A stretch of DNA of 64,000 nt. It comes from Desulfurococcales archaeon (lineage in GTDB: Archaea; Thermoproteota; Thermoprotei_A; Sulfolobales; NBVN01). Where the stretch lies: the NCBI GenBank assembly GCA_023255955.1, contig JAGDWD010000007.1, positions 71,929-135,928 on the forward strand, written 5' to 3'. This document shows, piece by piece, positions 7,781 through 54,978 of the stretch. Under the pieces are notes generated by a model that did not search any database, was not told the origin of the DNA, and saw only the letters and a program-made list of their open reading frames with translations. The position numbers and the translations under genes were made by a program. Every line of letters begins with the position of its first letter. The stretch's first letter is position 1.

Positions 7781-7819
7781 ACAATTGAAAGCCTCGTCCT
7801 TCAGGGCTGGGATGAAAAG
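7781..7819 (+). repeat. Dispersed hairpin element, copy a
   Basis: Sequence: ACAATTGAAAGCCTCGTCCTTCAGGGCTGGGATGAAAAG. The stem is 7792-7799/7804-7811 with loop TTCA. Confidence 0.6.
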
Positions 7820-8107
7820 TTTATGGGCCGAAGACCCGGCCCGGGACTAAACCCAGAAACGGGAATACAGCTCCAAACCTCCCCGCACTAAAGGGCGAGG
7901 GTTCCTATTAGTGCGGGGAGAAGCTCAGCTCTGTTTCGAGAAGCTCAGGTAATTTGCTTTATGGTACGGACCTCTCTTTTAATGTAGCTACGTACTTCCA
8001 CACTCTAGTAGAGTACTTCAAATACTTGAGTCTACTATGAGTTCTCAGAGTCTCCAAGGGGAAGCTATACTCGATTCGCATGTGTTCGCTAGGGAAATCC
8101 ATTGATG

Positions 8108-8185
8108 TGGTGCCGCGGCCGGGATTTGAACCCGGGTCACGGGCTCGAAAGGCCCGCATACTTGGCCGAGCTATACTACCGCGGC
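8108..8185 (-). tRNA. tRNA-Glu (anticodon UUC), CCA encoded, no intron
   Basis: The reverse complement is GCCGCGGTAGTATAGCTCGGCCAAGTATGCGGGCCTTTCGAGCCCGTGACCCGGGTTCAAATCCCGGCCGCGGCACCA. The cloverleaf is complete, with anticodon loop CTTTCGA. Confidence 0.9.
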
Positions 8186-11093: not shown

Positions 11094-11396
11094 TTAGCTA
11101 GGCTCCTCTCCACCCTCTCCTTCCTCACTACTCATCAGGTCTAGAAGGATCTCGTAGAACTCCTCCTTTTCTTGCTCTATCTCCTCCTGACTTCTAACTA
11201 CTCCACGACCCTCACTAACGATCGATGTGGTCTTCACCTTAGACTCAGTACTGGACTTGCCGGATAGTTTGTAGCCTGAGCCTGTCTTCGATGTTTCCTC
11301 GTAGCCACAGCTCGGACACTTATAAACATAGCCCTCATTTTTCTTCTGTGGCACCATAACCGTCCCACACTTAGGGCAAAACTTCGTGCCCACCAC
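11094..11396 (-). CDS. Zinc-ribbon protein (TFS/RpoM N-terminal-type ribbon) with an acidic C-terminal tail
   Basis: FCPKCGTVMVP...YKCPSCGYE is a C4 ribbon. The tail is EEIEQEKEEFYEILLDLMSSEEGEGGEEPS. There is no second ribbon. Confidence 0.6.
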   Translation of the reverse strand: MVGTKFCPKCGTVMVPQKKNEGYVYKCPSCGYEETSKTGSGYKLSGKSSTESKVKTTSIVSEGRGVVRSQEEIEQEKEEFYEILLDLMSSEEGEGGEEPS

Positions 11397-11536
11397 CTCA
11401 GATTTTTGGGGGTTGAAGACTTATAAACTTTACCTCAGGTTTCTGGAGGTCCAGGAAGGAGAAGCTTAGCTAGACCTTAGAAATTAGATCTAAGGGAGAG
11501 ATTTAGTTTACTGAGGGTTATTTAGAAAGGTGGTAT

Positions 11537-12427
11537 TCAGCGTTTAGAGAGCTCTATAACTAGATCAGCTATATGTTCAGCAGGGTTTATACCAGTGGCT
11601 CTCATGAAACCCTCCCATTGAGGTGTAGCATTAACCTCGTAGATCACGTAGCCATCCTCCGCCTCACCGACGTCAACCCCGGTATACAGTAGCTTCAAAG
11701 CTTTCGCTGCTCCTAACGATATCTCAACTAGTTCCGGCGTTAATTCAGCTATTTCTGTTCTAGCACCTTGAGACACGTTAGTCTTCCACGTCCCCTCAGG
11801 ACAGTACCTGTATACAGCTCCTAAGACCTTGTCCCCAACTACGAAGAGCCTGATATCTCTGTCATACTTACGTACATACTTCTGCAGGTATATTGGTAGT
11901 CCATGCATCTGAAGGAGTCTACCTACGTTGAATACTGTATCAGGGTCGTTAGCAAGTATACTACCATAGCCCATACTACCGATGAGAGGCTTTATAACTA
12001 CCTTACCCCACTTCTTCGCTATCTCCACAGCGTCGAACACATCCTCAACTACAGCTGTTTCTGGGACGCTAAGCCCAGCCTTCCTCAACTCGAGAATTGT
12101 TCGGTGCTTATCGCGTGCCATCATTATTGAGTCTACCGGATTGACGACCACGGTTCCCTGGGATTCGAGCTGCCTGAGGATATTGACCCTTCTAAGTAGG
12201 GTCTCCAACGTCGCTACACTGCCGAGACCTCGAACCACTACGGCATCTAACTCATCAAGCCTCACATCAGGTCCCGCACCAACCCAGGTATCACTACTAG
12301 AAGCATGTGATACGAGTCTTGAGAACCGTAAGTACATGACCTTCGCAGCACGCTTCATAAATGCCATCATAAGTTGCCTACTACTTGATGTCGGGACTGG
12401 GGCCTCATGTATTATGGCCACTCTCAC
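11537..12427 (-). CDS. ATP-grasp ligase of the RimK/LysX/MptN family
   Basis: The 296-aa product shows the RimK-type pattern (VVNPVDSIMMARDKHRT..., KPLIGSMGYG, YEVNATPQW). Confidence 0.75.
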   Translation of the reverse strand: MRVAIIHEAPVPTSSSRQLMMAFMKRAAKVMYLRFSRLVSHASSSDTWVGAGPDVRLDELDAVVVRGLGSVATLETLLRRVNILRQLESQGTVVVNPVDSIMMARDKHRTILELRKAGLSVPETAVVEDVFDAVEIAKKWGKVVIKPLIGSMGYGSILANDPDTVFNVGRLLQMHGLPIYLQKYVRKYDRDIRLFVVGDKVLGAVYRYCPEGTWKTNVSQGARTEIAELTPELVEISLGAAKALKLLYTGVDVGEAEDGYVIYEVNATPQWEGFMRATGINPAEHIADLVIELSKR

Positions 12428-12815: not shown

Positions 12816-14242
12816 TGGAGGCGGTAATAGCTTCCTCGATAATATTAGCAGTACTCTTCGTAATGTTCGTAATAGGGGTTCTAGCTTATAGGCTGAGAGT
12901 TAAGGTTCTGAGAGTAGATACGTACATGGTTGCTGGTAGGACCCTAGGGTTCCTAGTAACCTTCCTGAACATGGCTGCTGTCATCTACAGTGGCTTCGCG
13001 TTTCTAGGTGCTGCGGGTTGGGCCTACGCCTACGGTGCTCCCGTGCTCTACATATGGATCTATGGTGCCTTAGCCTACACCCTCGCCTTCTTCTTCGCTC
13101 CGAGGATTTGGGAGACGGCTAGGGGGCAGGGCTTACTGACCCAGTCTGACTTCTTTATGTGGAGGTATGGTAGTAAGCTCCTGATGATACTCACAGCCCT
13201 CGTCGGGATAACGTTTAATATTCCCTACGGCCAGCTACAGATCCTCACAACTAAGTATGTATTAGACCTATCGACGTACGGTGCCCTACCGACACTACAC
13301 ATAGCTGTCCTAAGCTTCGTTCTCACCATGGTATACGTCCTCCTCGGAGGTATGGTTAGCGTAGCTATAACAAACGTGTTTCTAGGTATCATAATGCTAG
13401 CTGGAATGCTCGGTGGAGGACTCTCCCTAATAATCCACTACTTCGGAGGGCTTCCCGGGCTCTTTAAGGCTGTTGAGAGCGTCAAGCCTGAGCACGTGTA
13501 CCTATGGGCAGCTACTGGTAGGAACTCCGTTCAGTGGGTTATAACTGCTGCGGTGGGCAGCGGGCTCGGTTTCTGGGTATGGCCCCAACTAGCTCAGATG
13601 GTGTTCCCCGCTAAAGATGCTAAGGTACTGAGGCGCAGCATAGTCATGACCTCCTGGTACCACGTCCTCGGCATAATCTGGGCCTCCCTAACAGGGCTCG
13701 TAGCTCTAGGGTTAGGCATGAAGCTAGCCGTAGCTGATCACGCGTTCCTAGCTCTCATCAGGGATACCTTCGGGCCCGTAGCACTGGGCTTCATAGGTGC
13801 TGCCGGTATGAGTGCCTCCCTCTCCAGCGCTGCCGGTATAATACTAACCCAGGCTAGCCTACTATCTAGGAACATATACCAGGGTTGGATAAAGCCTACA
13901 GCTAGTGAGAAGGAGATAGTCCTGGTCAGTAGACTAAGCGTGGTCGTATTCACCTTAATAAGTGTTATACTAGCCTACACAGCACCTGCTCACCTAGTCT
14001 ATCTACTGCTAGTTGGCTATACGGGTATAACCCAGATGTTCCCAGGTTGGGTACTAGGGAGTATATGGAGATGGATAACTAAGGAAGGAGTACTAGCTGG
14101 ACTAGTCGTGGGACTCGTAGTCGGTGTACTGACAGTCTTCGTCTGGCCGGATTATCTAGGTATACACTCAATCATATGGGGCTTAATATTCAATCTACCG
14201 ATAACCTTACTGGTCTCCAAGCTTACCTACAAGGGTGGGTAA
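12815..14242 (+). CDS. Sodium:solute symporter (SSS family)
   Basis: It is a 475-aa polytopic membrane protein with typical SSS topology and the DUF3311 partner immediately upstream. Confidence 0.8.
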   Translation: MEAVIASSIILAVLFVMFVIGVLAYRLRVKVLRVDTYMVAGRTLGFLVTFLNMAAVIYSGFAFLGAAGWAYAYGAPVLYIWIYGALAYTLAFFFAPRIWETARGQGLLTQSDFFMWRYGSKLLMILTALVGITFNIPYGQLQILTTKYVLDLSTYGALPTLHIAVLSFVLTMVYVLLGGMVSVAITNVFLGIIMLAGMLGGGLSLIIHYFGGLPGLFKAVESVKPEHVYLWAATGRNSVQWVITAAVGSGLGFWVWPQLAQMVFPAKDAKVLRRSIVMTSWYHVLGIIWASLTGLVALGLGMKLAVADHAFLALIRDTFGPVALGFIGAAGMSASLSSAAGIILTQASLLSRNIYQGWIKPTASEKEIVLVSRLSVVVFTLISVILAYTAPAHLVYLLLVGYTGITQMFPGWVLGSIWRWITKEGVLAGLVVGLVVGVLTVFVWPDYLGIHSIIWGLIFNLPITLLVSKLTYKGG

Positions 14243-15479
14243 GGTGTCCAGGCTAGATATAGTTAGGGAGAACATCGAGTGGGGGATTAAGGTACTTAAG
14301 GACATGGTTTCAATACCTACCGTGAACCCACCTGGAGAGAAGTACGGGGACTTCGCTAAGTACTCTAAAGAGCTTCTAAAGTCTATAGGGTTCTCCGTCA
14401 GGGTATACGAGGTCCCCGCAGACTACGTTAGGAGGTACTACCCAGACTACGCGGGCTACCCTAGGTACATCGTAGTTGGTAGGTACGGTGAGGGTTCTCC
14501 GGTGGTACACTTCAACGGCCACTATGACGTGGTGCCAGCCGGTAGTGGTTGGACTAAGAAACCTTTCGACCCTGTGATTGAGGGTGGCAGGCTCTACGGT
14601 AGAGGATCCTCGGATATGAAGGGTGGCATAGCTGCCTTCATAGCGGCTGCTAAGTCTTTTGTAGAGTCTAGGAGGGGGTTCAGGGGCTCCATAGAGATTG
14701 CTCTAGTACCGGACGAGGAGATCGGTGGCGAGACGGGAGCCGGTTACCTAGTTAGGGAGCTCGGACTTAGGCCAGACTACGCTATAATTGGAGAGCCCAG
14801 CGGCTCCGGAACTATATGGATAGGACATAAGGGGGCCCTCTGGGTTGTGGTGGAGGTCCACGGTAAGCAGGCCCACGGCTCCACCCCGTGGTTGGGCTCT
14901 AACGCGTTTGAGTACATGGTTAGGGTGGCTAGCAGGCTCATGGGGGAGTACCTACCGTACCTAGAGACTAAGAGGAGCTCCTACGAGTACGACGACCCCA
15001 GGGGCGCTAGGCCTACAGCTATGCTAGGCGGGGAGGTTAAGGGAGGGGCCAAGATAAATGTGGTACCGGGCTACTACTCGTTCTCCATAGACCGTAGGGT
15101 AACCCCCGAGGAGAGGTTAGAGGACGTCGAGAAAGAGATTAGGGAGTTCGTAGGGAAGGCTGCCTCTGAGCTACCCAGTAACGTTAGGGTTGAGATCAAG
15201 GTCGTTAACAGGCTACCACCAGCCCTAACTGACCCGAACTCGGACCTCGTAATGGTAGCTAAGGAGGTAGCTAGAGTGGTCCTAGGTGCTGAGCCCAGGA
15301 CTACCGTATGTCTAGGGGGCCTTGACATGAGGTACTACACTGAAGTAGGAGTGAGCACCATAACCTACGGGCCAGGACTACTCGGTACAGCACATATAGC
15401 AGACGAGTATCTACCCGTAGATGACTTCGAGCGTATGGTCTACATATACTACCTAATGCTCGAGAAACTACTTACGTAA
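14235..15479 (+). CDS. M20 metallopeptidase (ArgE/DapE/CPG2 family deacylase)
   Basis: Motifs HFNGHYDVVP, GRGSSDMKGG and PDEEIGG are present. It overlaps the SSS gene by 8 nt. Confidence 0.8.
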   Translation: MGKVSRLDIVRENIEWGIKVLKDMVSIPTVNPPGEKYGDFAKYSKELLKSIGFSVRVYEVPADYVRRYYPDYAGYPRYIVVGRYGEGSPVVHFNGHYDVVPAGSGWTKKPFDPVIEGGRLYGRGSSDMKGGIAAFIAAAKSFVESRRGFRGSIEIALVPDEEIGGETGAGYLVRELGLRPDYAIIGEPSGSGTIWIGHKGALWVVVEVHGKQAHGSTPWLGSNAFEYMVRVASRLMGEYLPYLETKRSSYEYDDPRGARPTAMLGGEVKGGAKINVVPGYYSFSIDRRVTPEERLEDVEKEIREFVGKAASELPSNVRVEIKVVNRLPPALTDPNSDLVMVAKEVARVVLGAEPRTTVCLGGLDMRYYTEVGVSTITYGPGLLGTAHIADEYLPVDDFERMVYIYYLMLEKLLT

Positions 15480-15925
15480 GTCTAGGCTCTTTTTCCCTCC
15501 TGTTGTAACCCTTCTCCACCTGAGTAGTTAGGCTAGTCCCCGCAAGCTAATTATAGGCTAGGGTAGTTACTATACTGATAACTCCGTGAGGCCTGAGGCA
15601 TGCACCCTAGGATACGGTGGCCTAGGTACCAAGGCCTTCACTAAGCCCCTGCGGGAGTTGGATATGGAGCTCGCTATCGAGTTAGGAGGTGATGGACCAG
15701 CGGTAGAGTGCCTGAGTTCTTCGGTTCCTGCCTAGCTCGCTAGGGATGGACTACCTACGGCTTTCGGAACTGGGTGGCTGCAGGAGTTTCGGGGATGACA
15801 TCGAGGATGTGGGTATGGGTAGTTGTTTTAGATCAGAAGGTTTTAGGGTCCACACCCTACGTACTCCACTCCCGGTAGCTAGAGGTACTCTCACGAGGTT
15901 TAGGGGCTCCGTTTCGGTCGTAGAA

Positions 15926-16093
15926 CTCTACTACTATGCTGTGAGAGGGTTCTAGTTCTATCTCATAGGAAGATACTGTCAGACTAGCTCCTCTTTAGGG
16001 GTTTCAGGGTGTAACACGTAGTCCCGCTTAGGGTGTTTGAGTACAGGTTCGCCGGATATGCTGGGGTGGTAGCTGGGGAGCATAGTAGTAGAG
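15926..16093. repeat. Perfect 15-bp inverted repeat with a 138-nt spacer, inside an ORF-free tract
   Basis: CTCTACTACTATGCT (15926-15940) is the exact reverse complement of AGCATAGTAGTAGAG (16079-16093). Confidence 0.8.
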
Positions 16094-16144
16094 AACGCGC
16101 CCTTAGGTGAGGAGAGAACTATGATTTCCTCATAGCACCTCTTT

Positions 16145-16846
16145 CTACCTGCCCTTGCGGTGAAGTAACCTCTTCAGTGCTTCTACACTTACTCCCACGA
16201 ATTCCGTAAAAACCATCTTTACTGATGCTATCAGACCTTTCTCTACATATGTCTCGGCAATTTTCTTCCAATTTATCTTCATTATCGATATCGTTAAATA
16301 GATTGTGACTGCGGCTATACATAGTGCTAGTACCGGATTAAATACCAACCCCTCACCAAGATAGGCATAGATAACTTTAAAGTACGTTGAGATGATCCAC
16401 ACCATGATAACCTTACCGATGAAGACCCCAAAGAAGAAGAGATGTAGGGGGTACTTTGCTACCCCTAGAGGGACGTACACCATGTCATCGGGAGCTGGTG
16501 TTGCGGCAAACAATACGATTAGCAGGAAGGAAGCTTTCTTTGTGTACTTTACGAAGTACTTTAAGTTCTCCTTGGTGCTCTCACCTAGCTTAACCCTGAA
16601 GCTGGCGGCTGTAGCGTAAACTACTATCTTTCCTATGGTCGAACCTAGTGCTGAGGCAAGTACTAGCGCTATCTCAGCACTGAGTCCGAGCCTAACAGCC
16701 TCCCTAGCTATGTAATTAGCTACTACCAGTAAATAAGGAACCCCAACAAAAGGTATTGAATTGGAGACCAAGCTTAACGCAAATACTCCAAGGTATCCTC
16801 CATACGCCCTAGCAACATCTATTAGCGCTTTAACTACGCTCAGCAT
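16145..16846 (-). CDS. DedA/VTT (SNARE-associated) family membrane protein
   Basis: The 233-aa product begins ...LGVFALSLVSNSIPFVGVPYLLVV, typical of DedA, and has multiple TM helices. Confidence 0.65.
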   Translation of the reverse strand: MLSVVKALIDVARAYGGYLGVFALSLVSNSIPFVGVPYLLVVANYIAREAVRLGLSAEIALVLASALGSTIGKIVVYATAASFRVKLGESTKENLKYFVKYTKKASFLLIVLFAATPAPDDMVYVPLGVAKYPLHLFFFGVFIGKVIMVWIISTYFKVIYAYLGEGLVFNPVLALCIAAVTIYLTISIMKINWKKIAETYVEKGLIASVKMVFTEFVGVSVEALKRLLHRKGR

Positions 16847-17544: not shown

Positions 17545-17585
17545 TACAATCGAAGGTCCTGCCTCTCCAGGGCGAGGAAGTAAAC
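17545..17585 (+). repeat. Dispersed hairpin element, copy d
   Basis: Sequence: TACAATCGAAGGTCCTGCCTCTCCAGGGCGAGGAAGTAAAC. The stem is 17558-17565/17570-17577 with loop TCCA. Confidence 0.5.
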
Positions 17586-21961: not shown

Positions 21962-22816
21962 TTTCTTTCCTCAACTTTACTGAGTCTCGAATGGATTTAT
22001 ATATTGAGGTATAACTGTCTTACGATCTAATAAACAGGTTTCCCTATAAGACAAGCCTGGTAGTTTAATAAAAAGTTGCAGACCAGCAAACGCATTAAAA
22101 TTTATAAGAAAGGTTCTTGGTATTACGCTGAAACACATGCTAAATATGCTTCTCTACACAGCCTATATTCAAAGAATTCGATATCCCGATCTCTTAGTTT
22201 CGTTTTATCTCTAGATACTAGTTCTCGTTGGTCTACGTTTGCTTACCGCACTTAGAGACATTTATTTTACCTTCAAGGATCCATGAACCCCCATGGTATT
22301 TATGTGGTTAAGTCGGCGACACTGTTCCTATCTGCTGATACTCCACCGAGCCCAGGCTGTTGCTTTATTACCTAGGCAGACTCTGCGGGAAGATGCGGGA
22401 ACGGAACCCATAAACCTAACGCCTAGTAATCGATGAGGATACAGTCTCATAACACTATAATACTATCTATTTACGATGAATCATTTATAATTTATGCTAG
22501 CCATATCTACGCATTAGTGGAGGAATATAGCCTTCCATATCTTTATCTTGGGGTCTAGCGTTATCGTTAGGCTATCTACGACTTTAAGTAGAAGACGTTA
22601 TAAACTTGCGAGGAGATAGAGCGAAAGACACTAATGTGGGGGTAGTAAACTCAACACGAAGTTAAGCCTATGATTTATGATATGTTTAAGCATCTAGGTA
22701 ATGATTTATTCGACAACAGCTGCAGTCCGAGTTCTGAATAGGATAAGGATAATAAGCTGGAGACTAGCCAGAGCTAAACTCTAGAATTAATATCTTAGGT
22801 GTAGAAACCTGTCTGA

Positions 22817-31005: not shown

Positions 31006-31053
31006 CCTCGCTGACCTCTTCCCCGCTTTTTTATGGTGAGGGCTTTCAATGAT
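31006..31053 (-). repeat. Dispersed hairpin element, copy i
   Basis: On the minus strand it reads ATCATTGAAAGCCCTCACCATAAAAAAGCGGGGAAGAGGTCAGCGAGG. It sits in a 69-bp segment bounded by 10-bp direct repeats ATTCAAATAG (30973-30982 and 31052-31061). Confidence 0.5.
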
Positions 31054-33759: not shown

Positions 33760-33840
33760 TTAGCACCCGCCAGAGCTTAAGTCTTTGAACACTATTAAAA
33801 CTTCAGTCCAACACGCCCTAATCGAGTTTAATCTTACAGT

Positions 33841-33880
33841 TGAAATCCCAGCCCTTCAAGGCAGGGAAGAGGTCATCACG
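33841..33880 (-). repeat. Dispersed hairpin element, copy b
   Basis: On the minus strand it reads CGTGATGACCTCTTCCCTGCCTTGAAGGGCTGGGATTTCA. The stem is CCCTGCCT/GGGCTGGG with loop TGAA. Confidence 0.5.
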
Positions 33881-33887
33881 TACCTCA

Positions 33888-34469
33888 CTACCTAAGCTTC
33901 TCCAGTAAATGAAGTACTAGACTCCGTTTAAACGAGTTTTCTACAGCTTCAACTATCTCTATGGCTTCACCTAAGCTCCTCCCGACGCCAACTATTCCAT
34001 GGTTCTTTAAGACGACACCTAAACACCCCTTAGCGATGACCTCCCCAACGGAGTCAGCAAGTTCTTTAGATCCAGGTGGTAGCTCACCTACGTAGCACGT
34101 TCTCATGTCGAATACCCTGAACTCCATATCTAGATATGGATCTAGAACCCCTGCTAGTACTGGTGCGAAGAGGCCGTGGACGTGAACTACAGATTTACAT
34201 TCAGAGCAGACTCTGTATATAGTTAAATGCATCTGGATTTCAGTTGAGGGTCTTGGTCCAGCTAGGTGAGTTCCGTCTATAGCTACTATTGATATGTCCT
34301 CTGGTTTAAGTAGAAACTTCTCTATCCTCGATGGGGTTATAGCTACCCTTTCCTCACTTAACTTAATGCTCGCGTTCCCGCTGAGAGCTGTTATAAGTCC
34401 CTTTAGATAGAGGTACCTCATAGCCTGACATAGCTTCTCTATGGATTCATCTGGCAGGGCTATCCCCAC
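33888..34469 (-). CDS. Class II aldolase/adducin-family protein (fuculose-phosphate aldolase-like)
   Basis: The 193-aa product has the pattern GNASIK...PSTEIQMH...VVHVH. Confidence 0.75.
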   Translation of the reverse strand: MGIALPDESIEKLCQAMRYLYLKGLITALSGNASIKLSEERVAITPSRIEKFLLKPEDISIVAIDGTHLAGPRPSTEIQMHLTIYRVCSECKSVVHVHGLFAPVLAGVLDPYLDMEFRVFDMRTCYVGELPPGSKELADSVGEVIAKGCLGVVLKNHGIVGVGRSLGEAIEIVEAVENSFKRSLVLHLLEKLR

Positions 34470-34476
34470 AGGGTAG

Positions 34477-35184
34477 TTAGGTAGCTAACATTTTTCTAGC
34501 TTCCTCAGCTATCTCCACTCCATAGCTAGTACCGATCACATGGGCACCGAGGTAGAGCATGAGTGCGGCATCGATAGCCGTCCTTATACCTCCAGATGCT
34601 TTAATCTTTATCTTCCCACTAGTAGCAGATTTAATTGTCAGTATATCAGAAGGAAGAACTCCTCTGGAGCCAAACCCGGTATTTGTCTTTATGAAGTCAG
34701 CACCTGAGAGCTCAACCAACTTAGAGACACTTCTCACCTCCTCATGTGTGAGTCCGGATGTCTCAATTATTATCTTTATGATTAATCCCAGCTCATGCGA
34801 TCTTTTGACTAGTTCTGAAACCTCCCTTGAGACTTCACTCCACTTACCGCTTTTAATAGGGATTAGGTTAAGTACGACATCAACCTCACGTGCTCCGCAG
34901 GTTGCCGCATAATCTATCTCACGAAGCTTAATGTCGACAGGGCTGTAGCCATTCGGAAATCCTATAACCGTCCCTACCCTGTACTTAGTTAGAGGTGTAA
35001 CTAAGGGGAGTATTACCTGCGGAACCACTACTGCTCTGAAACTATATTTTTCAGATCTTTCGATGAACTCCAGGTACTCCCTCTCAGATGCGTTAACTTT
35101 CAGCATCGTCTGATCTATCGATCCTTCAACAGCTTTGACGTAGCCTATCAATGTGTTTAAGTCCATGCTAGACAATCCAGTCAC
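34477..35184 (-). CDS. deoC: Deoxyribose-phosphate aldolase
   Basis: It is a DeoC-type TIM barrel (IDQTMLK, REVDVVLN, FIKTNTGF with the Schiff-base Lys, KASGGIRT). Confidence 0.8.
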   Translation of the reverse strand: MTGLSSMDLNTLIGYVKAVEGSIDQTMLKVNASEREYLEFIERSEKYSFRAVVVPQVILPLVTPLTKYRVGTVIGFPNGYSPVDIKLREIDYAATCGAREVDVVLNLIPIKSGKWSEVSREVSELVKRSHELGLIIKIIIETSGLTHEEVRSVSKLVELSGADFIKTNTGFGSRGVLPSDILTIKSATSGKIKIKASGGIRTAIDAALMLYLGAHVIGTSYGVEIAEEARKMLAT

Positions 35185-38043: not shown

Positions 38044-38475
38044 TCACACCTTAAGTTCCCGACTAACGTAACGCCTCTGGCTTAGTACTTGAAGTAAGTA
38101 CCTTGTTAGAAGGGAGCACTTTGTCGGGTCGTAGTAGCCTCCCATACCGCACTTACCTATGTTCCGGCAGGTAAAGCACGGTATCTCAATTACTGGGTTA
38201 AGGTCTACATGGATAACTATAGGTGCTCTTGTAGTATCCGTATACCTCAGGATATAAGTCTTCTTCCCCTTATGGGTTACTGCTTCCCTACTTACAAGGC
38301 CCTTCCTCATTAATCTAGCTATCAGCTTACTACCTTCCCTGCTGTCAATACCGAGTAAATGCCATAACTCACTCTGTACTATACCACCATTTTTCTTTGT
38401 CTCCTCCCTGATTATCTCGAGGACCTTATCCTCAAGGCTTTCTTTTTCTATTATCTCAGGATCCCGAATATATTT
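38044..38475 (-). CDS. RPC34 (RNA polymerase III subunit C34/RPC6)-like winged-helix protein with a C-terminal 4-Cys motif; start codon unresolved
   Basis: The open frame 38475-38044 encodes a wHTH (EIIREETKKNGGIVQSELWHLLGIDSREGSKLIARLMRKGLV) and then CFTCRNIGKCGMGGYYDPTKC (C-x2-C-x5-C-x10-C). The first ATG/GTG/TTG is at 38310, inside the wHTH. Confidence 0.55.
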   Translation of the reverse strand, partial: KYIRDPEIIEKESLEDKVLEIIREETKKNGGIVQSELWHLLGIDSREGSKLIARLMRKGLVSREAVTHKGKKTYILRYTDTTRAPIVIHVDLNPVIEIPCFTCRNIGKCGMGGYYDPTKCSLLTRYLLQVLSQRRYVSRELKV

Positions 38476-38478
38476 TTA
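38467..38478 (-). promoter_or_regulatory. TATA-like box for the RPC34-like gene
   Basis: The minus strand reads TAAAAATATATT. This would place a transcription start near 38450, at in-frame ATA ATA codons (38454-38449). Confidence 0.3.
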
Positions 38479-38904
38479 GTTACAGAGCAAATATAGCTCT
38501 ATATCCCCCAGTATATTAAATTATTTAAGTGAAGCCCTCCCACTGGGAATGTTTTATGTGTCCTCCATGCTCACGAATGCGGCAGTAATACTGCATCATC
38601 TTTCAAGAACTTTATCTAGAACTTTCCAAGTATTTGTAGGTAGTTTTAGTTCTGTTGGCCGGGCAGTCCTTAGTGAGTACTACTAGCTCCAACCCCACCA
38701 CTTAGGACCTCATCGAGGTTGGTACTATAGATCTACATCTATTGATGAGAATTTCACCTTCTCAACCTCTCTCACCACAGTACGAACCACAGAGGAGCAA
38801 ACGTCTCAAGTACCTAAAACAAATAGACAAGTATTAAATCTATCATTACCCTGGTGGCCACTCCGACCGCCCCCGCAGATGAGAGATATATCCCCAGAAT
38901 AGAT

Positions 38905-38940
38905 GCGGAAATCCTTATTCTTCAGGGCGAGGAGGTCAGA
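38905..38940 (+). repeat. Dispersed hairpin element, copy c
   Basis: Sequence: GCGGAAATCCTTATTCTTCAGGGCGAGGAGGTCAGA. The stem is 38913-38920/38925-38932 with loop TTCA. Confidence 0.5.
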
Positions 38941-38993
38941 ATGTTAGGATTTTTCCCTAGATAACAAGCTTAATTCCGAGTCGCAGAAACTTA

Positions 38994-42822: not shown

Positions 42823-43534
42823 TATATTTGAGCAACTGAAGTAAAAGTTTCGCCCATGCTAACTTAGCTAGCTTATTCTTGATATTAATTAATGTGCCTG
42901 AAGGTTTTTCTAGCCTAGAGACTCTACCGAAGTCGAAGCCGTAAAGGTATACCCTACTAGCACCATAACTGAAGGCAAGATAGACTCCTCTATCCCCATC
43001 TGTAAAACCACCTGGGACATCTACCCTATGCGAACACCCGCACTGAGCAGTTCCGATAAGAAAACCCCGAACTTCAGGTACTAGCGATACTATCTTGTCG
43101 ATATTGTCCCCATGAGCGTGAACTACGTAGACTACGTCTCTATAGCCCAACATATCCCGAGTAATCCCATCTAGATCTGTAACCACGACATCGGGGATTA
43201 TACCCTCCCTCAAACACACCCCAAACGCGGCGTCTGCTGCTATTAAAACCTTCCCGGACTTGCTCGGACATCCCGATGTGAAAGCATCCCCAACGACGAT
43301 AGCGTCCCCACCTTCGAGGAGTTTAGATAGGTACCTACGTGACTCAAACACTAGTTCCATCCTAGTCGACAGTATAATGTCAAGAATTCGGCAAGAATAG
43401 TGATCCCTTTCCCTATCAAATCCTAGGTTAGCAATTATAGAGTCATAGAAGATCTCCCAGAAGAATCTATCCCTAACAGACACTACCCACCCCCAGGTCC
43501 TTAAGGTCCTTACATACAGTCTCAGCACACTCAA
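42773..43534 (-). CDS. mptE: 6-hydroxymethyl-7,8-dihydropterin pyrophosphokinase, MptE-like (DUF115)
   Basis: Motifs VVVTDLDGI, VVHAHGDNIDK and GGFTDGDRG are present. The true start is probably the GTG at 43483. Confidence 0.7.
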   Translation of the reverse strand: MSVLRLYVRTLRTWGWVVSVRDRFFWEIFYDSIIANLGFDRERDHYSCRILDIILSTRMELVFESRRYLSKLLEGGDAIVVGDAFTSGCPSKSGKVLIAADAAFGVCLREGIIPDVVVTDLDGITRDMLGYRDVVYVVHAHGDNIDKIVSLVPEVRGFLIGTAQCGCSHRVDVPGGFTDGDRGVYLAFSYGASRVYLYGFDFGRVSRLEKPSGTLINIKNKLAKLAWAKLLLQLLKYSGYRIECLEGGCKSWI

Positions 43535-44177
43535 CTAAATCACTGGATCCAAGTCTCCTAACCAATGAAATACTGTAGCTAAGCATCTCAATCCACCTTG
43601 AGAGCTCGGGGATTTCTCGGTAACCCGATGAAATGAAGTACCTTATCTTTGTGAGGTAAACTAAAGCCTCGATAAGCATGGAGTTAGCTCTACTATATGA
43701 GAAGTAACGACCTCTACCTTCATAAACACCGAGTACGGAGAGAATCACGGAGGCTCTCTGACCCTCTTCTACAATAAGTTTCGGGACTGCCTCAACATGC
43801 ATATCTACGTCAGCATCCAATACGTAGAAACCACTATTCCGACCACTTACGTATCTAAGCTTAAACGGTCTTAAAACAACGTCGCAGAATATTAATGCGT
43901 TATGGGTGAACAGCAGAGAAACTGGGGAACCCGCCTTTATGTTTCTGTATGTTCGGCTATCGATATAGGGGAATATAGCGAGGCCCTCATTGAGTAAGCG
44001 GACTCCCATAGCCGCAGCATGAGGTTTTTCAGCCTCATCTACAGTGATCACTATAGCTTCATGATGCCCATATCTTAGGGCATCCCTTAGCTTACTGAGA
44101 TATTCTGTATCCACATCCACAACGCGTTCTCGGTTGTCAGTAGATATTTCAACCACCAGCCGCGTAGAGGATCCCAC
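43473..44177 (-). CDS. DUF447-family protein (FMN-binding split-barrel-like, found in pterin biosynthesis neighbourhoods)
   Basis: The frame was trimmed to GTG 44177 because the upstream part of track ORF 43473-44333 is antisense to tRNA-Arg. The remaining ~234 aa look coding. Confidence 0.55.
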   Translation of the reverse strand: MGSSTRLVVEISTDNRERVVDVDTEYLSKLRDALRYGHHEAIVITVDEAEKPHAAAMGVRLLNEGLAIFPYIDSRTYRNIKAGSPVSLLFTHNALIFCDVVLRPFKLRYVSGRNSGFYVLDADVDMHVEAVPKLIVEEGQRASVILSVLGVYEGRGRYFSYSRANSMLIEALVYLTKIRYFISSGYREIPELSRWIEMLSYSISLVRRLGSSDLVECAETVCKDLKDLGVGSVC

Positions 44178-44218
44178 TAAATCACTTAAAAACTCTTTCT
44201 GAGTATAGCTCTTGGAGT

Positions 44219-44327
<109 letters not shown>

Positions 44328-44329
44328 CA

Positions 44330-44773
44330 TCATTTATAAAGTAGTTTCCTCAAAGTCGGTGAGTCATCCTGCAGTAGCAGCTCGAGAGCTACTGCCTCAA
44401 TAAGTTCACAGTCTACTTCCTCACTTCTGAGTTTTCCTTGGGATATAGCTAAGTCGAGAGCTACTAGGTGGTAACAAGTTCCCTTACTTCTCCTCATTAC
44501 TACCCCTATCTCAAAGTCTTTACAGCTACAGAAGGTCCTCGGTAGCATGATGTAGCACCTACTCTTCCCGAGGAATACGTAGAGCTCTGAAACTATCCTC
44601 CCACTGCTTCTGCAGTATAACCTCAGTAACCGATTCTCTTTTAAAGCCTCTAAAGCTTTCTCAGGAGGTTTCTCGAGGCTGGTGACAACGCTTTTATCTA
44701 CTGACCTCTTATCTAACCTCTCTATCTGCTCCCTATCTGCAACTCCTACTACCATAGCTCGAAACTTCTCCAT
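44330..44773 (-). CDS. SWIM zinc-finger-like protein
   Basis: CSCKDFEIGVVMRRSKGTCYHLVAL fits the SWIM signature CxCxnCxH. The product is 147 aa. Confidence 0.5.
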   Translation of the reverse strand: MEKFRAMVVGVADREQIERLDKRSVDKSVVTSLEKPPEKALEALKENRLLRLYCRSSGRIVSELYVFLGKSRCYIMLPRTFCSCKDFEIGVVMRRSKGTCYHLVALDLAISQGKLRSEEVDCELIEAVALELLLQDDSPTLRKLLYK

Positions 44774-47435: not shown

Positions 47436-47480
47436 TTCATAGCTGAAAGCCCGGTCTTTGGGGTGGGATGAGGTTACTAA
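47436..47480 (+). repeat. Dispersed hairpin element, copy e
   Basis: Sequence: TTCATAGCTGAAAGCCCGGTCTTTGGGGTGGGATGAGGTTACTAA. The stem is 47450-47456/47461-47467. Its 3' end overlaps the stop codon of the opposite-strand gene. Confidence 0.5.
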
Positions 47481-49051
47481 CCTTCTAGTTCGAGGCTAGC
47501 CTTCATCTTTCCAACGAGCTTGGATATGAATAACGCTCTGACCGAGTTATATATTTTTTCTGATATCTCCTCAACACTTGACACATCAACCTCTATGAAT
47601 AACCTGATTATACTGTTGACTGGTACAATACCTATGAGACCGTTTAGTGAGATTCCCCACATTTCCCTATAAGCTACGCGGAAGTACACCACAGCCTCAC
47701 GATCCCAGCGTTTATCGCTGATGTTCTCAACCTCGAAGAACTCGTTGGTTTCGATGGCTTTCTTAATTACCTCTATCAACCTCGTTAAATCTCCAGCTTT
47801 CTGAGTTGGTAAAACCATCTCATACCTGTCTGGTGCTGGTGTGTAGGCTCCGTAGCTAAGGGTCCCGGTTCCCACCTCCCTTATTAGGATGATTGCTGCT
47901 ACAGCTATTGACAGCAAGCTAACTACTACTGTTACAGCAACTTGTTTTGCTGGCAGTATGAAGTATGCTAGTGTAGCAGACACTACTGTACTAAGGAGAG
48001 CTGAGACCATCATATGCATTGTTAGGGTTGCTACTATACCCCACTGGGGTAGACCTACATAACGGAGTTTATCATTTATTGCCTTAAATTCAGGTATGAG
48101 TGATCTGTAGGATATTGTTACTAGAACAGCGCAGGAGAAAATCGTGAGTAGGGCTGAGATCACCGCGTTTACTGTGACAATCTTAGCTGAACCTATTATT
48201 AGAACTGTTGATGCGTGGTAGTAGTAAATCACATCAACGCTTAACACCTCTATTACCACATTTATCACATCCCTACTCAGGGATAGGTTCTCTATCAAGA
48301 CGTCGGTAACGGGGGTCTCATCCAAGTTCAAAATCTTAACTATGGTTTCAAGATCTGAGATAAGTACCATGTCCAGTGAAGGGGTTATAGGTTCAGTCCC
48401 TATGTACCCTAAGACAGGTAGTAAGGTCTCGAGAGGCGCTATCTTCATTTTTTGTAGTGAAGGATCAGCACACTCTATCTCTAGGCTAGATATGTTTTTA
48501 GGGGGTTCTCCTTGCCCAACACAGCCGGTTATCAACGTATTTGGTTTAATATTTAACTTGCGGGCTAGAGGTCCTTCAATACCTATGACAACCCATTTAA
48601 TACCTGGTACCCCCTCTATGCGTAAGCCTCTCTCTAATGACGTTCTATATAGATATGTGATCGACGTCTCACCCTCAACTATTAAAGGTTTTAGAACTGA
48701 TTCAACCGCATGTTTATCTGCATGATCGCTCAGCTTTACTAGGACTAGGTGACCTGGTACAGCTTCACCTACCTCCTTCACAAGTTCTGTTCTTGTTTCA
48801 CCGTAAGCCATAGTAGCCATGAGAGATGCGGTTACGATGCTTGCTAGAATGAGGAACGTTGTTAAGTTTATTATCGATACCTTCAATATTCTTCCGAATA
48901 GACTTAATAGGGTCGCACTGTGTTTAACTCTCCGGATAAGAGCCTCAGGAGGTAGCTCAACAGCACCTACTCTAGATTTCAGTACATTTACGAGAGCATA
49001 GATAACTGTTATGATGTATATAGCTACGAATATGTAGAGCTCCAGGTTCAT
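47477..49051 (-). CDS. Membrane protein with FtsX-like topology (N-terminal TM helices, ~200-aa outside domain, 3-4 TM helices, soluble C-terminus)
   Basis: The call for this 524-aa product rests on its hydrophobicity pattern only. Confidence 0.5.
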   Translation of the reverse strand: MNLELYIFVAIYIITVIYALVNVLKSRVGAVELPPEALIRRVKHSATLLSLFGRILKVSIINLTTFLILASIVTASLMATMAYGETRTELVKEVGEAVPGHLVLVKLSDHADKHAVESVLKPLIVEGETSITYLYRTSLERGLRIEGVPGIKWVVIGIEGPLARKLNIKPNTLITGCVGQGEPPKNISSLEIECADPSLQKMKIAPLETLLPVLGYIGTEPITPSLDMVLISDLETIVKILNLDETPVTDVLIENLSLSRDVINVVIEVLSVDVIYYYHASTVLIIGSAKIVTVNAVISALLTIFSCAVLVTISYRSLIPEFKAINDKLRYVGLPQWGIVATLTMHMMVSALLSTVVSATLAYFILPAKQVAVTVVVSLLSIAVAAIILIREVGTGTLSYGAYTPAPDRYEMVLPTQKAGDLTRLIEVIKKAIETNEFFEVENISDKRWDREAVVYFRVAYREMWGISLNGLIGIVPVNSIIRLFIEVDVSSVEEISEKIYNSVRALFISKLVGKMKASLELEG

Positions 49052-50913: not shown

Positions 50914-51004
50914 GGGGCCGTCGTCTAGCTTGGCTAGGATGCCAGCCTGGGGACAACCCCCGCCAGTACGCTGGTGGTCCCGGGTTCAAATCCCGGCGGC
51001 CCCA
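50914..51004 (+). tRNA. tRNA-Pro (anticodon GGG) with a 16-nt intron after position 37; no encoded CCA
   Basis: GGGGCCGTCGTCTAGCTTGGCTAGGATGCCAGCCTGGGG, then the intron ACAACCCCCGCCAGTA, then CGCTGGTGGTCCCGGGTTCAAATCCCGGCGGCCCCA. Confidence 0.9.
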
Positions 51005-54525: not shown

Positions 54526-54641
54526 TGGTGCGGGGGGTGGGATTCGAACCCACGCAGGCCTACGCCATCGGGTCTCTCACCGCGTATCTGCTGGAAGCAG
54601 TCTTAAGCCCGACCCCTTTGACCTGGCTCGGGCACCCCCGC
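54526..54641 (-). tRNA. tRNA-Leu (anticodon UAA) with a 28-nt intron after position 37; CCA encoded
   Basis: The reverse complement is GCGGGGGTGCCCGAGCCAGGTCAAAGGGGTCGGGCTTAAG, then the intron ACTGCTTCCAGCAGATACGCGGTGAGAG, then ACCCGATGGCGTAGGCCTGCGTGGGTTCGAATCCCACCCCCCGCACCA. Confidence 0.9.
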
Positions 54642-54692: not shown

Positions 54693-54733
54693 CTATAACC
54701 GAAAGCCTCAATCTTTAGGGCTAGGATGAATTG
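54693..54733 (+). repeat. Dispersed hairpin element, copy g (preceded by a hairpin-less partial copy at 54678-54692)
   Basis: CTATAACCGAAAGCCTCAATCTTTAGGGCTAGGATGAATTG is 28/37 identical to copy a. The partial copy TTGAAAGAGGGCTGA lies just upstream. Confidence 0.55.
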
Positions 54734-54821
54734 AAGAATCATAAACTCTTTTGTTCATGGCTGTTGGTGGTGGGTTAGGAGAGCGTGGTTAAGCCCCTAG
54801 GAGGGGGTGCAGTATCGAATT

Positions 54822-54867
54822 CTCAAGGAATCCTCACCATTAATTGTGAGGAGGAGGTTAAATCAGC
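54822..54867 (+). repeat. Dispersed hairpin element, copy f
   Basis: CTCAAGGAATCCTCACCATTAATTGTGAGGAGGAGGTTAAATCAGC has stem CCTCAC/GTGAGG. It shares CCTCACCAT(A/T)AA with copy i. Confidence 0.45.
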
Positions 54868-54978
54868 CGGGGTTAGCATCTACATAATCTAGAGGTAACT
54901 AAACTAAAGTTGCTGAGAATCACTAGGTAATTTAGATCTATATTAGATGATACAGCTTAACGTAATTATGGTAATATT

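Follow-up and report, generated by a model that had tools for sequence, protein, structure and literature searches.

What are the short hairpin repeats that lie between the genes of a 64,000-nucleotide stretch of a Desulfurococcales archaeon genome (contig JAGDWD010000007.1, positions 71,929 to 135,928 of the forward strand; hereafter the window)? A first-pass annotation of this DNA listed eight copies, labelled a–g and i, and saw in them a mobile repeat akin to repetitive extragenic palindromes (REPs) or miniature transposable elements with inverted repeats (MITEs), a family of small RNAs, or a leader hairpin that sequesters a Shine–Dalgarno (SD)-like sequence. We find that the copies are very probably the end hairpins of tnpB-only (IS1341-type) insertion sequences (ISs) of the IS200/IS605 group and of the derivatives of these that carry no gene, known as palindrome-associated transposable elements (PATEs).

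The repeats form a genuine family. All eight listed strings are present, as strings, at their positions and on their strands, and the pattern GAAAGCC-N8-30-GGATGA is found three times against 0.01 expected. The 9-mer AGGGCGAGG, which had been noted for its enrichment, does occur three times in the window against 0.41 expected; its instance at 7892 is the complement side of a ninth, minus-strand copy, j. A covariance model built from the eight listed copies (R1) recovers its training set together with copy j, which is independent of it, and reaches a maximum of 21.1 bits in a 984-kb control set of unrelated loci from archaea and bacteria. A second model (R2), built mostly from copies in relatives and run over the window with filters off, returns exactly nine copies of at least 24.8 bits, the next match scoring 16 bits. 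Scanning with a covariance model, as the annotation had suggested, thus yields further copies, j in the window and others in relatives' loci, with control DNA clean above 21.1 bits. All nine copies are intergenic, as had been said of the first eight, in a window whose intergenic share is about 13–14% by the open reading frame (ORF) map, and copy b, listed on the minus strand, belongs on the plus strand by its score (Table 1). The hairpin repeat family is therefore confirmed beyond chance. In short-word blastn comparisons, copy-to-copy similarity stops at about 40 nucleotides; the exceptions are the adjacent pair g-f and copy c, which have longer homology to elements in relatives. Lacking extended mutual homology, the window copies did not arise recently from one long element.

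When members from relatives are included (49 in all), the stem cells are 88% paired against 80% in shuffles, double-change cells number 27 against 7.6 expected, and the covariation score is matched by none of 500 shuffles, in an alignment that was fitted to the model and carries a bias toward the structure. The third stem pair is U-G in 20 of 48 sequences and the structure is thus strand-specific, which bears out the polarity of T opposite G on the listed strand; this polarity fits RNA and top-strand single-stranded DNA, the substrate of Y1 transposases, alike. A further pairing seen in the consensus DNA fold, of CTGA in the 5′ linker with TCAG in the 3′ terminus, was dropped, as its two sites do not covary among the copies.

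Relatives of the window tie the family to tnpB. The nearest genomes by the Elp3-like protein are metagenome-assembled genomes of a 'Sulfolobales archaeon', Ignisphaera and Desulfurococcaceae at 65–74% identity; their contigs hold one family match in 190 kb (locus L011), and L003 and L004, partly syntenic with the window, are informative for copy e only. Together with tRNA genes that have long introns, these nearest genomes point to an uncultured crenarchaeote as the source. A metagenome scan with TopoVI-A gave loci at 94% amino-acid identity (L083 and L084), at 84–88% (L085–L090) and, in large number, at about 72%; L084 is syntenic with the window from 24 to 46 kb. R1 finds about 21 matches of at least 26 bits in 1.15 Mb of these TopoVI-A relatives, and many copies there are near-perfect, reading TT-ACAACTGAAAGCC-TCGCCC-TTCA-GGGCGGGG-A(G/T)GAGGTCAG. 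Across 18 copies, the information content is zero directly outside TTAC...GGTCAG, giving sharp boundaries. The copies fall into two classes. Class 1 has the 5′ motif (TTAC)AACTGAAAGCC with nothing conserved upstream, TTAC standing directly 5′ of 12 of 18 copies, and ends either in a tail GGGGATGA... or in the right-end tail GGGGAGGAGGTCAG. Class 2 has the motif GGAA(C/G)CC and extended homology upstream of it.

The top R1 match in the control DNA, L027 12814-12852, is the 3′ end of the sole tnpB detected there by tblastn, a gene with the Pfam domains OrfB_IS605, HTH_OrfB_IS605 and Cas12f1-like_TNB. To its left this gene has TTAC and the motif GGGGATGAG and no matching hairpin, so that the left-end assignment is only weakly supported there. 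Class-2 hairpins also close tnpB pseudogenes or remnants at L133 4347-5683 (TNB domain), at about 745-1100 in L148, L149 and L152, and at L131 11356-11451. A whole element is preserved at L133 14012-15320, where TTAC is followed by a class-1 hairpin (14014-14052), a split tnpB (14329-14907 with a weak OrfB_IS605 match, and 14961-15239 with a TNB domain at E = 2.5e-16) and a class-2 hairpin (15279-15318) ending in AGGAGGTCAG. This element, together with the class-2 hairpins at tnpB ends, identifies class 1 as the left end and class 2 as the right end. The same succession, class 1 then class 2 on one strand, is found in five gene-less composites: g-f in the window, L084 2381-2545, L084 11396-11676, L131 11365-11583 and L124 4047-4288. 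In these five composites and the one IS, class 1 is always at the 5′ end. The family has the features by which PATEs are recognized, namely a one-strand subterminal hairpin, no terminal inverted repeats and units that, at 37–45 nucleotides, are too short for a protein; homology of the ends to those of tnpB-carrying ISs of the same lineage was found in the relatives and not in the window.

Exact presence/absence differences at TTAC accompany this architecture in the relatives. Locus L124 is about 92% identical in nucleotide sequence to L128 and L131, and blastn alignments between them break exactly at elements. With slashes marking the element boundaries, a site with a 39-nucleotide insert reads GTGTTAC/ACCTATC when empty (L128) and GTCAC/AACCGAAAGCCTCGCCCTTCAGGGCGGGGATGAGGTCAG/ACCTATC when filled (L124), and one with a 37-nucleotide insert reads CTTTTAC/ATATGTTAGT when empty (L128) and CTTTTAC/AGCCGAAAGCC...GGGGGTCAG/CTATGTTAGT when filled (L124). 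The segments L124 7236-7273 and 13939-13975 are absent from L128 and L131, exactly after TTAC, and the 219-nucleotide composite at L131 11365-11583, which retains the last ~30 codons of tnpB and follows TGAC(A), is missing in L124 and L128. Target duplications and terminal inverted repeats are lacking at all these sites. Y1 elements insert 3′ of a 4–5-bp target without duplication, and their protein-less derivatives are the PATEs and REPs (PMC4810608). Near-identical single-hairpin copies also stand at several sites of one genome (L133 12009 and 11378). The presence/absence data fit three routes alike: the mini-unit itself may have inserted, a longer element may have inserted and then lost its core in a deterministic way, or a unit may have been precisely excised.

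Positions are not conserved. Copies i, b and c lie in gaps that cannot be aligned with syntenic L084, no match being reported at those L084 intervals, and some L084 copies have no counterpart in the window, such as 16745-16783 opposite a 60-nucleotide window spacer. The L084 ortholog of the gene for a 235-residue protein at 34477-35184 keeps its first 64 codons only, and the composite at 11396-11676 fills the rest (L084 11157-11680), which resembles the truncation or replacement of a gene in association with a transposon. A length difference of another kind is seen at L124 16626-17558, where 933 nucleotides correspond to about 125 in L128 (16584-16708) and L131 (16805-16929); the short version holds a terminal-only unit (L128 16634-16672).

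The right-end hairpin leads to a known RNA module. No Rfam family reaches its gathering score on the copies, and in the window only four tRNAs reach it. At E-value thresholds, HgcC (RF00062) matches over f (54753-54868(+), 21.0 bits) and over b (33773-33889(+), 20.3 bits), where the 3′ end of sot0042 also matches, and HgcC is the only Rfam family that repeatedly matches members in relatives (9 matches, 22–33 bits). High posterior probability in these alignments is confined to the 3′ hairpin module of HgcC, which runs GGaaC-CccCGccc-UUuA-gggCGggG-AGGAGGUCAG over f and b. This stretch, which corresponds to the common plan drawn in the first-pass annotation, is known as the 'RE-like tetraloop': its 8-bp stem carries a UUCA or UUUA loop, and it closes IS1341-type tnpB genes on their 3′ side, at the IS200/IS605 right end (Gomes-Filho et al., PMC4615843). 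HgcC RNAs and intergenic RNAs derived from PATEs have it too (PMC4615843), and the RNAs of tnpB 3′ ends are now termed omega RNAs (PMC12558985). What HgcC and the sense overlapping transcripts (sotRNAs; RF02656/RF02657) share with the family is the GGAAC/GAAAGCC motif, the 8-bp G+C stem, the UUCA/UUUA loop and a GGAGGAGGUCA tail, and some HgcC copies are, as here, intergenic and without tnpB. They differ in that only the last ~40–45 nucleotides align convincingly, the upstream scaffolds are unlike and most window copies are bare hairpins. Position at a tnpB 3′ end behind a scaffold of 100–250 nucleotides, as expected of an omega RNA, is found for class-2 copies of the relatives and not in the window, where scaffold-like sequence, about 70–110 nucleotides, is kept only by f (in g-f) and c. 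At L027 12843-12920(-), RAGATH-18 (RF03064) gives a sub-threshold match of 30.1 bits (gathering score 44.9) that ends where the tnpB 3′ hairpin starts; from this position, HgcC, sot0042, RAGATH-18 and perhaps RAGATH-32 each seem to capture different pieces of the guide-RNA scaffold.

These results settle much of what the first-pass annotation proposed. It knew of no archaeal element of this shape, which the RE-like tetraloop (PMC4615843), Rfam HgcC and the haloarchaeal PATEs (PMC3119063) already describe, and the Rfam comparison leads to the known HgcC/tnpB-end module. Its REP/MITE-like option was essentially right, the copies being PATE-like end modules with exact insertions or deletions 3′ of TTAC in relatives. 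Its small-RNA option was half right, to the extent that the right-end hairpin appears to be the 3′ module of tnpB-associated RNAs (HgcC, sotRNA, omega RNA; PMC4615843).

From these parts a full element in this lineage can be read: a TTAC target, outside the element, is followed by AACTGAAAGCC-hairpin-GGGGATG..., tnpB and ...GGAA(G/C)CC-hairpin-AGGAGGTCAG. The two end hairpins are near-identical direct repeats, each composed of CCTCGCCC, a TTCA or TTTA loop and GGGCGGGG. Core deletion between them would leave the 37–39-nucleotide terminal-only unit, and partial deletion the composites of 165–240 nucleotides; a single hairpin with a left-end 5′ flank and a right-end 3′ tail is what deletion between directly repeated hairpins is expected to produce. 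Mobilization by TnpA, any role as RNA and the inactivity of the window copies would follow by analogy with the biology of IS200/IS605 elements and TnpB. On that analogy, the top-strand hairpin would be bound as single-stranded DNA by a Y1 (HUH) TnpA acting in trans, with precise excision and insertion 3′ of TTAC without duplication. Transcribed, the right-end hairpin would form the final stem-loop in the guide RNA of TnpB (omega RNA, or right-end element RNA, reRNA), with the sequence past GGTCAG as its guide, and TTAC would serve as the target-adjacent motif (TAM). Selection against insertions in genes probably accounts for the intergenic restriction. We regard it as possible, if rather doubtful, that the 37–39-nucleotide units (TTAC/A(A/G)C(C/T)GAAAGCC-hairpin-A(G/T)GAGGTCAG) are themselves mobile in thermophilic Crenarchaeota via a trans-acting Y1 transposase. 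Expression of the scaffold-bearing orphans g-f and c as putative orphan omega RNAs that program a distant TnpB is a possibility.

Several observations weigh against an origin in tnpB elements. Neither the window nor the ~14 kb beyond its ends contains a gene for TnpB or TnpA, or a remnant of one that could be detected; four TnpB queries gave noise only in tblastn against the window, and those ~14 kb contain no further family copies. No Y1 TnpA was found in 2.4 Mb of relatives' loci, by a weak search (tblastn with an IS608 TnpA, and a Y1 motif regular expression). The clean insertions and deletions come from genomes whose TopoVI-A is ~72% identical to that of the window, and an empty/filled pair was obtained for none of the window copies. 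The HgcC scores, all about 20–33 bits, stay far below a gathering score of 50 for a model of ~130 nucleotides. Folding of the window hairpins gives minimum free energies no better than those of shuffles (z from 0.4 to −1.5), and in the window copies alone pairing in the 8-bp stem reaches 78%, shuffles giving 74%, with covariation that is not significant; the stem drawn by the first-pass annotation is thus without significance inside the window, and it is the covariation among the 49 members that upholds it. Finally, the short tails are what the assignment of a, d and e as left ends or as decayed terminal-only units is drawn from, and it should be read as tentative.

The same data bear on a role for the hairpins in their own right. 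As a cis-acting leader, the CCUC arm would sequester an SD-like GGAGG tail and so control translation downstream. The tail GGAGGAGGT is indeed SD-like and the 5′ arm rich in CCUC, U-G stem pairs fit RNA, and c, f, d and g lie 54–246 nucleotides 5′ of a same-strand gene on the ORF map. The claim that six of the eight copies stand 50–250 nucleotides upstream of such a gene did not survive: b and e, each between two minus-strand genes, are antisense to both neighbours, and an opposite-strand tRNA separates a from MoeA. Copies are not kept at orthologous genes in syntenic L084, the terminal-only unit is gained or lost exactly at TTAC between genomes of 92% identity, the window hairpins do not exceed shuffles in stability, and the GGAGGAGGTCAG tail is conserved as the right-end terminus of the transposon whatever the distance to a start codon, all of which makes the leader highly improbable. 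We give still less credence to independent small-RNA genes, of a kink-turn (K-turn), C/D-box-like or other kind, built on a YYGA...GAUGA frame. They would account for the (C/U)UGA 5′ and GGAUGA 3′ of the hairpin in a, e and g, superficially D′/C′-like, and for the TATA-like AT-rich stretches seen by eye ~25–30 nucleotides upstream of a, d and g; on inspection there are no C (RUGAUGA) or D (CUGA) boxes at canonical spacing, the tails GGGGATGA and GGGGAGGA interchange within the family, and the boundaries TTAC...GGTCAG are those of the transposon. Threading of the K-turn and C′/D′ box by hand, in both topologies, through a and e was likewise abandoned, as the flanks form none of the required stems, canonical or non-canonical, and the Rfam snoRNA matches are noise (E = 2–8).

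An archaeal system of the REP/REPIN type would keep the mobility and dispense with the tnpB element: single hairpins would be spread by a domesticated, single-copy Y1 transposase similar to the REP-associated tyrosine transposases (RAYTs), instead of being ends of decaying tnpB ISs. PATEs and REPs have been grouped as IS605-like Y1 products (PMC4810608). Units of 37–39 nucleotides are dense between genes (9 per 64 kb here, 6–7 per 21 kb in L084 and L133), each carries a single hairpin in a 5′ tetranucleotide context that is conserved, near-identical copies occupy several L133 sites, presence/absence polymorphism is exact, and a and j, the sole convergent pair, lie 53 nucleotides apart but belong to different classes. 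Most copies, however, are single or in direct tandem, not inverted doublets, and no Y1 gene appears in 2.4 Mb under the weak search described above. In the same lineages, tnpB elements demonstrably have these hairpins as their left and right ends, which makes the REP/RAYT account less parsimonious, and a single-hairpin unit is just the product expected of repeat-mediated deletion between the two end hairpins, as described for Haloquadratum (PMC3119063). We therefore consider a REP-like system improbable and retain the origin of the copies as ends of tnpB-only elements and PATEs.

Table 1. The nine hairpin copies of the window, with the two members of the g-f composite in one row. R1 and R2 are covariance-model scores.
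Copy	Type	Positions	Strand	Score
a	Left-end-type (class-1) hairpin	7781-7819	+	R1 43.7, R2 42.7 bits
j	Right-end-type (class-2) hairpin, not in the earlier list	7873-7911	-	R1 28.9, R2 35.5 bits
d	Degenerate left-end-type class-1 relic	17546-17585	+	R1 33.2, R2 25.3 bits
i	Degenerate terminal-only unit	31013-31053	-	R1 34.9, R2 26.5 bits
b	Terminal-only single-hairpin unit	33836-33874	+	R1 44.8 bits on +, 9 bits on -
c	Copy with upstream scaffold; class-2 right-end hairpin at 38902-38940, ending GAGGAGGTCAGA	38840-38943	+	R1 33.7 bits
e	Class-1 or terminal-only unit	47439-47475	+	R1 37.1, R2 30.7 bits
g-f	Composite gene-less element (PATE), ~175 nt	54693-54868	+	R1 40.5 (g), 33.6 bits (f)

The window copies are mutated, mostly fragmentary relics, comprising one composite, the terminal-only units b, i and probably e, the left ends a and d and the right ends c and j. 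Intact TTAC is found at b and d only; with mismatched stems and degenerate TTAC sites, the window copies are probably inactive. Copy a, (c)TAC/AATTGAAAGCC-TCGTCC-TTCA-GGGCTGGG-ATGAAAAG, has the left-end-type tail GGGATGA and the 5′ motif and sharp 5′ boundary of class-1 copies in relatives; no same-strand right end follows downstream, which marks it as a relic. Copy d reads (TT)ACAATCGAAGGTCC-TGCCTC-TCCA-GGGCGAGG-AAGTAAAC. Copy b reads TTAC/AGTTGAAATCC-CAGCCC-TTCA-AGGCAGGG-AAGAGGTCAT. Copy i, 20 nucleotides past the stop codon of a rhomboid gene, joins the class-1 5′ motif TTGAAAGCC, through an enlarged A-rich loop, to the right-end tail GGGGAAGAGGTCAG, which matches the terminus consensus. 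Copy e, ATAGCTGAAAGCC-CGGTC-TTTG-GGGTGGG-ATGAGGTTAC, directly adjoins the stop codon of the gene at 47477-49051(-). Its spacer is 137 nucleotides long in the window against 77–82 in the L003 and L004 orthologs, and the extra ~55 nucleotides hold e. That gene is itself ~24 nucleotides longer than its orthologs, running into the e-bearing sequence (window 47477-47520; L003 4340-4390, L004 4432-4480), and the insertion of e may have altered its C terminus and stop codon.

Two copies retain more than the hairpin. The g-f composite, which has no ORF, consists of the left end g (54695-54733), an omega-RNA-scaffold-like core and the right end f (54822-54859), ending in GGAGGAGGTTAAATCAG, and is homologous over its full length to L084 2381-2545, at a different genomic site. 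Copy c is preceded by ~60–70 nucleotides of omega-RNA-scaffold-like sequence (GCAGATGAGAGATATATCCCCAGAATAGATG) with an internal deletion of ~24 nucleotides relative to the relatives; the region aligns with L084 11560-11690 and with L133 15195-15335, the right end of the tnpB element. The spacer 5′ of c measures 683 nucleotides, its unaligned part about 454 in the window against about 105 in L084, and 38215-38824 within this upstream sequence gives the window's only, faint, hints of TnpB fragments by tblastn (E = 0.6–0.8, not significant). The spacer may be a fully decayed tnpB.

Copy j, CTAATAGGAACC-CTCGCCC-TTTA-GTGCGGGG-AGGTTTGG, is near-identical to the Rfam HgcC 3′ consensus. Its 3′ arm can pair alternatively with upstream CTCCCCGCACTAA in a hairpin of 12–13 bp (about 7877-7918); the arm GUGCGGGGAG thus has as its partner either the local 5′ arm or the upstream segment CUCCCCGCACUAA, and a G-to-U change in the 3′ arm is matched by an A in the upstream segment. 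Several class-2 copies of relatives (L084 2490-2545, L089 6160-6211) have CCCCGC or CCCCAC just 5′ of the 5′ motif. Judged from sequence, the omega RNA might have here, in its 3′ region, an alternative pairing or one of pseudoknot type. Between j and the tRNA-Glu gene lie ~200 nucleotides of unannotated non-coding DNA (7912-8107), the expected site of any scaffold or tnpB remnant belonging to j; this segment has no Rfam or protein match.

Elsewhere in the window, Rfam places tRNA genes at 44219-44324(+), 50914-51004(+) and 54529-54641(-), of 91–113 nucleotides and presumably intron-containing, which ARAGORN misses; ARAGORN reports only tRNA-Glu at 8108-8185(-). The ORF 43473-44333(-) overlaps the tRNA at 44219-44324(+), and since the L084 match to this ORF begins no earlier than residue 69, the ORF has probably been given too early a start. 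Two spacers, 21962-22816 (855 nucleotides) and 15480-16144 (665 nucleotides), contain no ORF of at least 80 codons, no family copy and no Rfam match.

Among known systems, the haloarchaeal PATEs (PMC3119063, PMC4615843, PMC10055086) are similar in being gene-less IS605/IS1341 derivatives without terminal inverted repeats or target duplication, with near-terminal palindromes that are direct repeats and a short 5′ targeting oligonucleotide; core deletion leaves one palindrome with both termini, exact insertions are strain-specific, and decayed, heterogeneous copies are common. In Haloquadratum, 52-bp 'terminal-only' PATEs derive from repeat-mediated core deletion between near-terminal palindromes, and their mobility was raised as a question (Dyall-Smith et al., PMC3119063). 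Here, the host is an uncultured thermophilic crenarchaeote, the terminal-only unit has 37–39 nucleotides, the target is TTAC, the hairpin is of HgcC type (CCUCGCCC-UUCA-GGGCGGGG), and the window copies are old relics as opposed to homogeneous recent ones. The omega RNAs or reRNAs of ISDra2, AmaTnpB and SisTnpB1 (PMC8612924; bioRxiv 10.1101/2023.03.06.531077) likewise have a right-end hairpin at or over the tnpB stop codon that ends the transposon, placed as the last scaffold stem before the guide, and TTAC at the left end would be the counterpart of their TAM. They differ in that the window has no tnpB, that most window copies lack the 100–200-nucleotide scaffold and that the RNA is known here from sequence alone; the motif TTAC also differs from the published TAMs TTGAT, TCAC and TTTAA. 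With REPs and REPINs the family shares the single-hairpin form of its very short repeats, their conserved 5′ oligonucleotide, a high density between genes and a relation to IS200/IS605 ends, whereas REPINs are inverted doublets that go with a single-copy RAYT and the units here are single or in direct tandem and traceable to the ends of tnpB elements. IS608 of Helicobacter pylori, which carries tnpA and tnpB, inserts 3′ of TTAC without duplication and has, on one strand, a similar imperfect hairpin close to each end; its left cleavage site is 19 nucleotides from the hairpin, and AAAG at the hairpin's 5′ foot is the left guide. The AAAG at the 5′ foot and the TTAC seen here are a resemblance to IS608. 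TTAC is only 9 nucleotides from the stem here, and no tnpA is known.

The finding opens no new mechanism; it explains the nine window hairpins, and many more in related hot-spring Crenarchaeota where they reach one per 3–7 kb in some contigs, as a known kind of mobile-DNA relic. As relics of transposon ends, these repeats should not be mistaken for riboregulators, small-RNA genes or SD elements. The PATE and terminal-only phenomenon, known in haloarchaea, is extended to an uncultured Desulfurococcales/Ignisphaera-like lineage, and if the units of 37–39 nucleotides are indeed mobile, few of the mobile DNA units so far described would be as small. The unexplained Rfam family HgcC is tied to left- and right-end modules with a defined TTAC target, and for work on TnpB the family supplies a predicted TAM (TTAC), a right-end terminus (…AGGAGGTCAG) and scaffold fragments of a thermophilic crenarchaeal clade.

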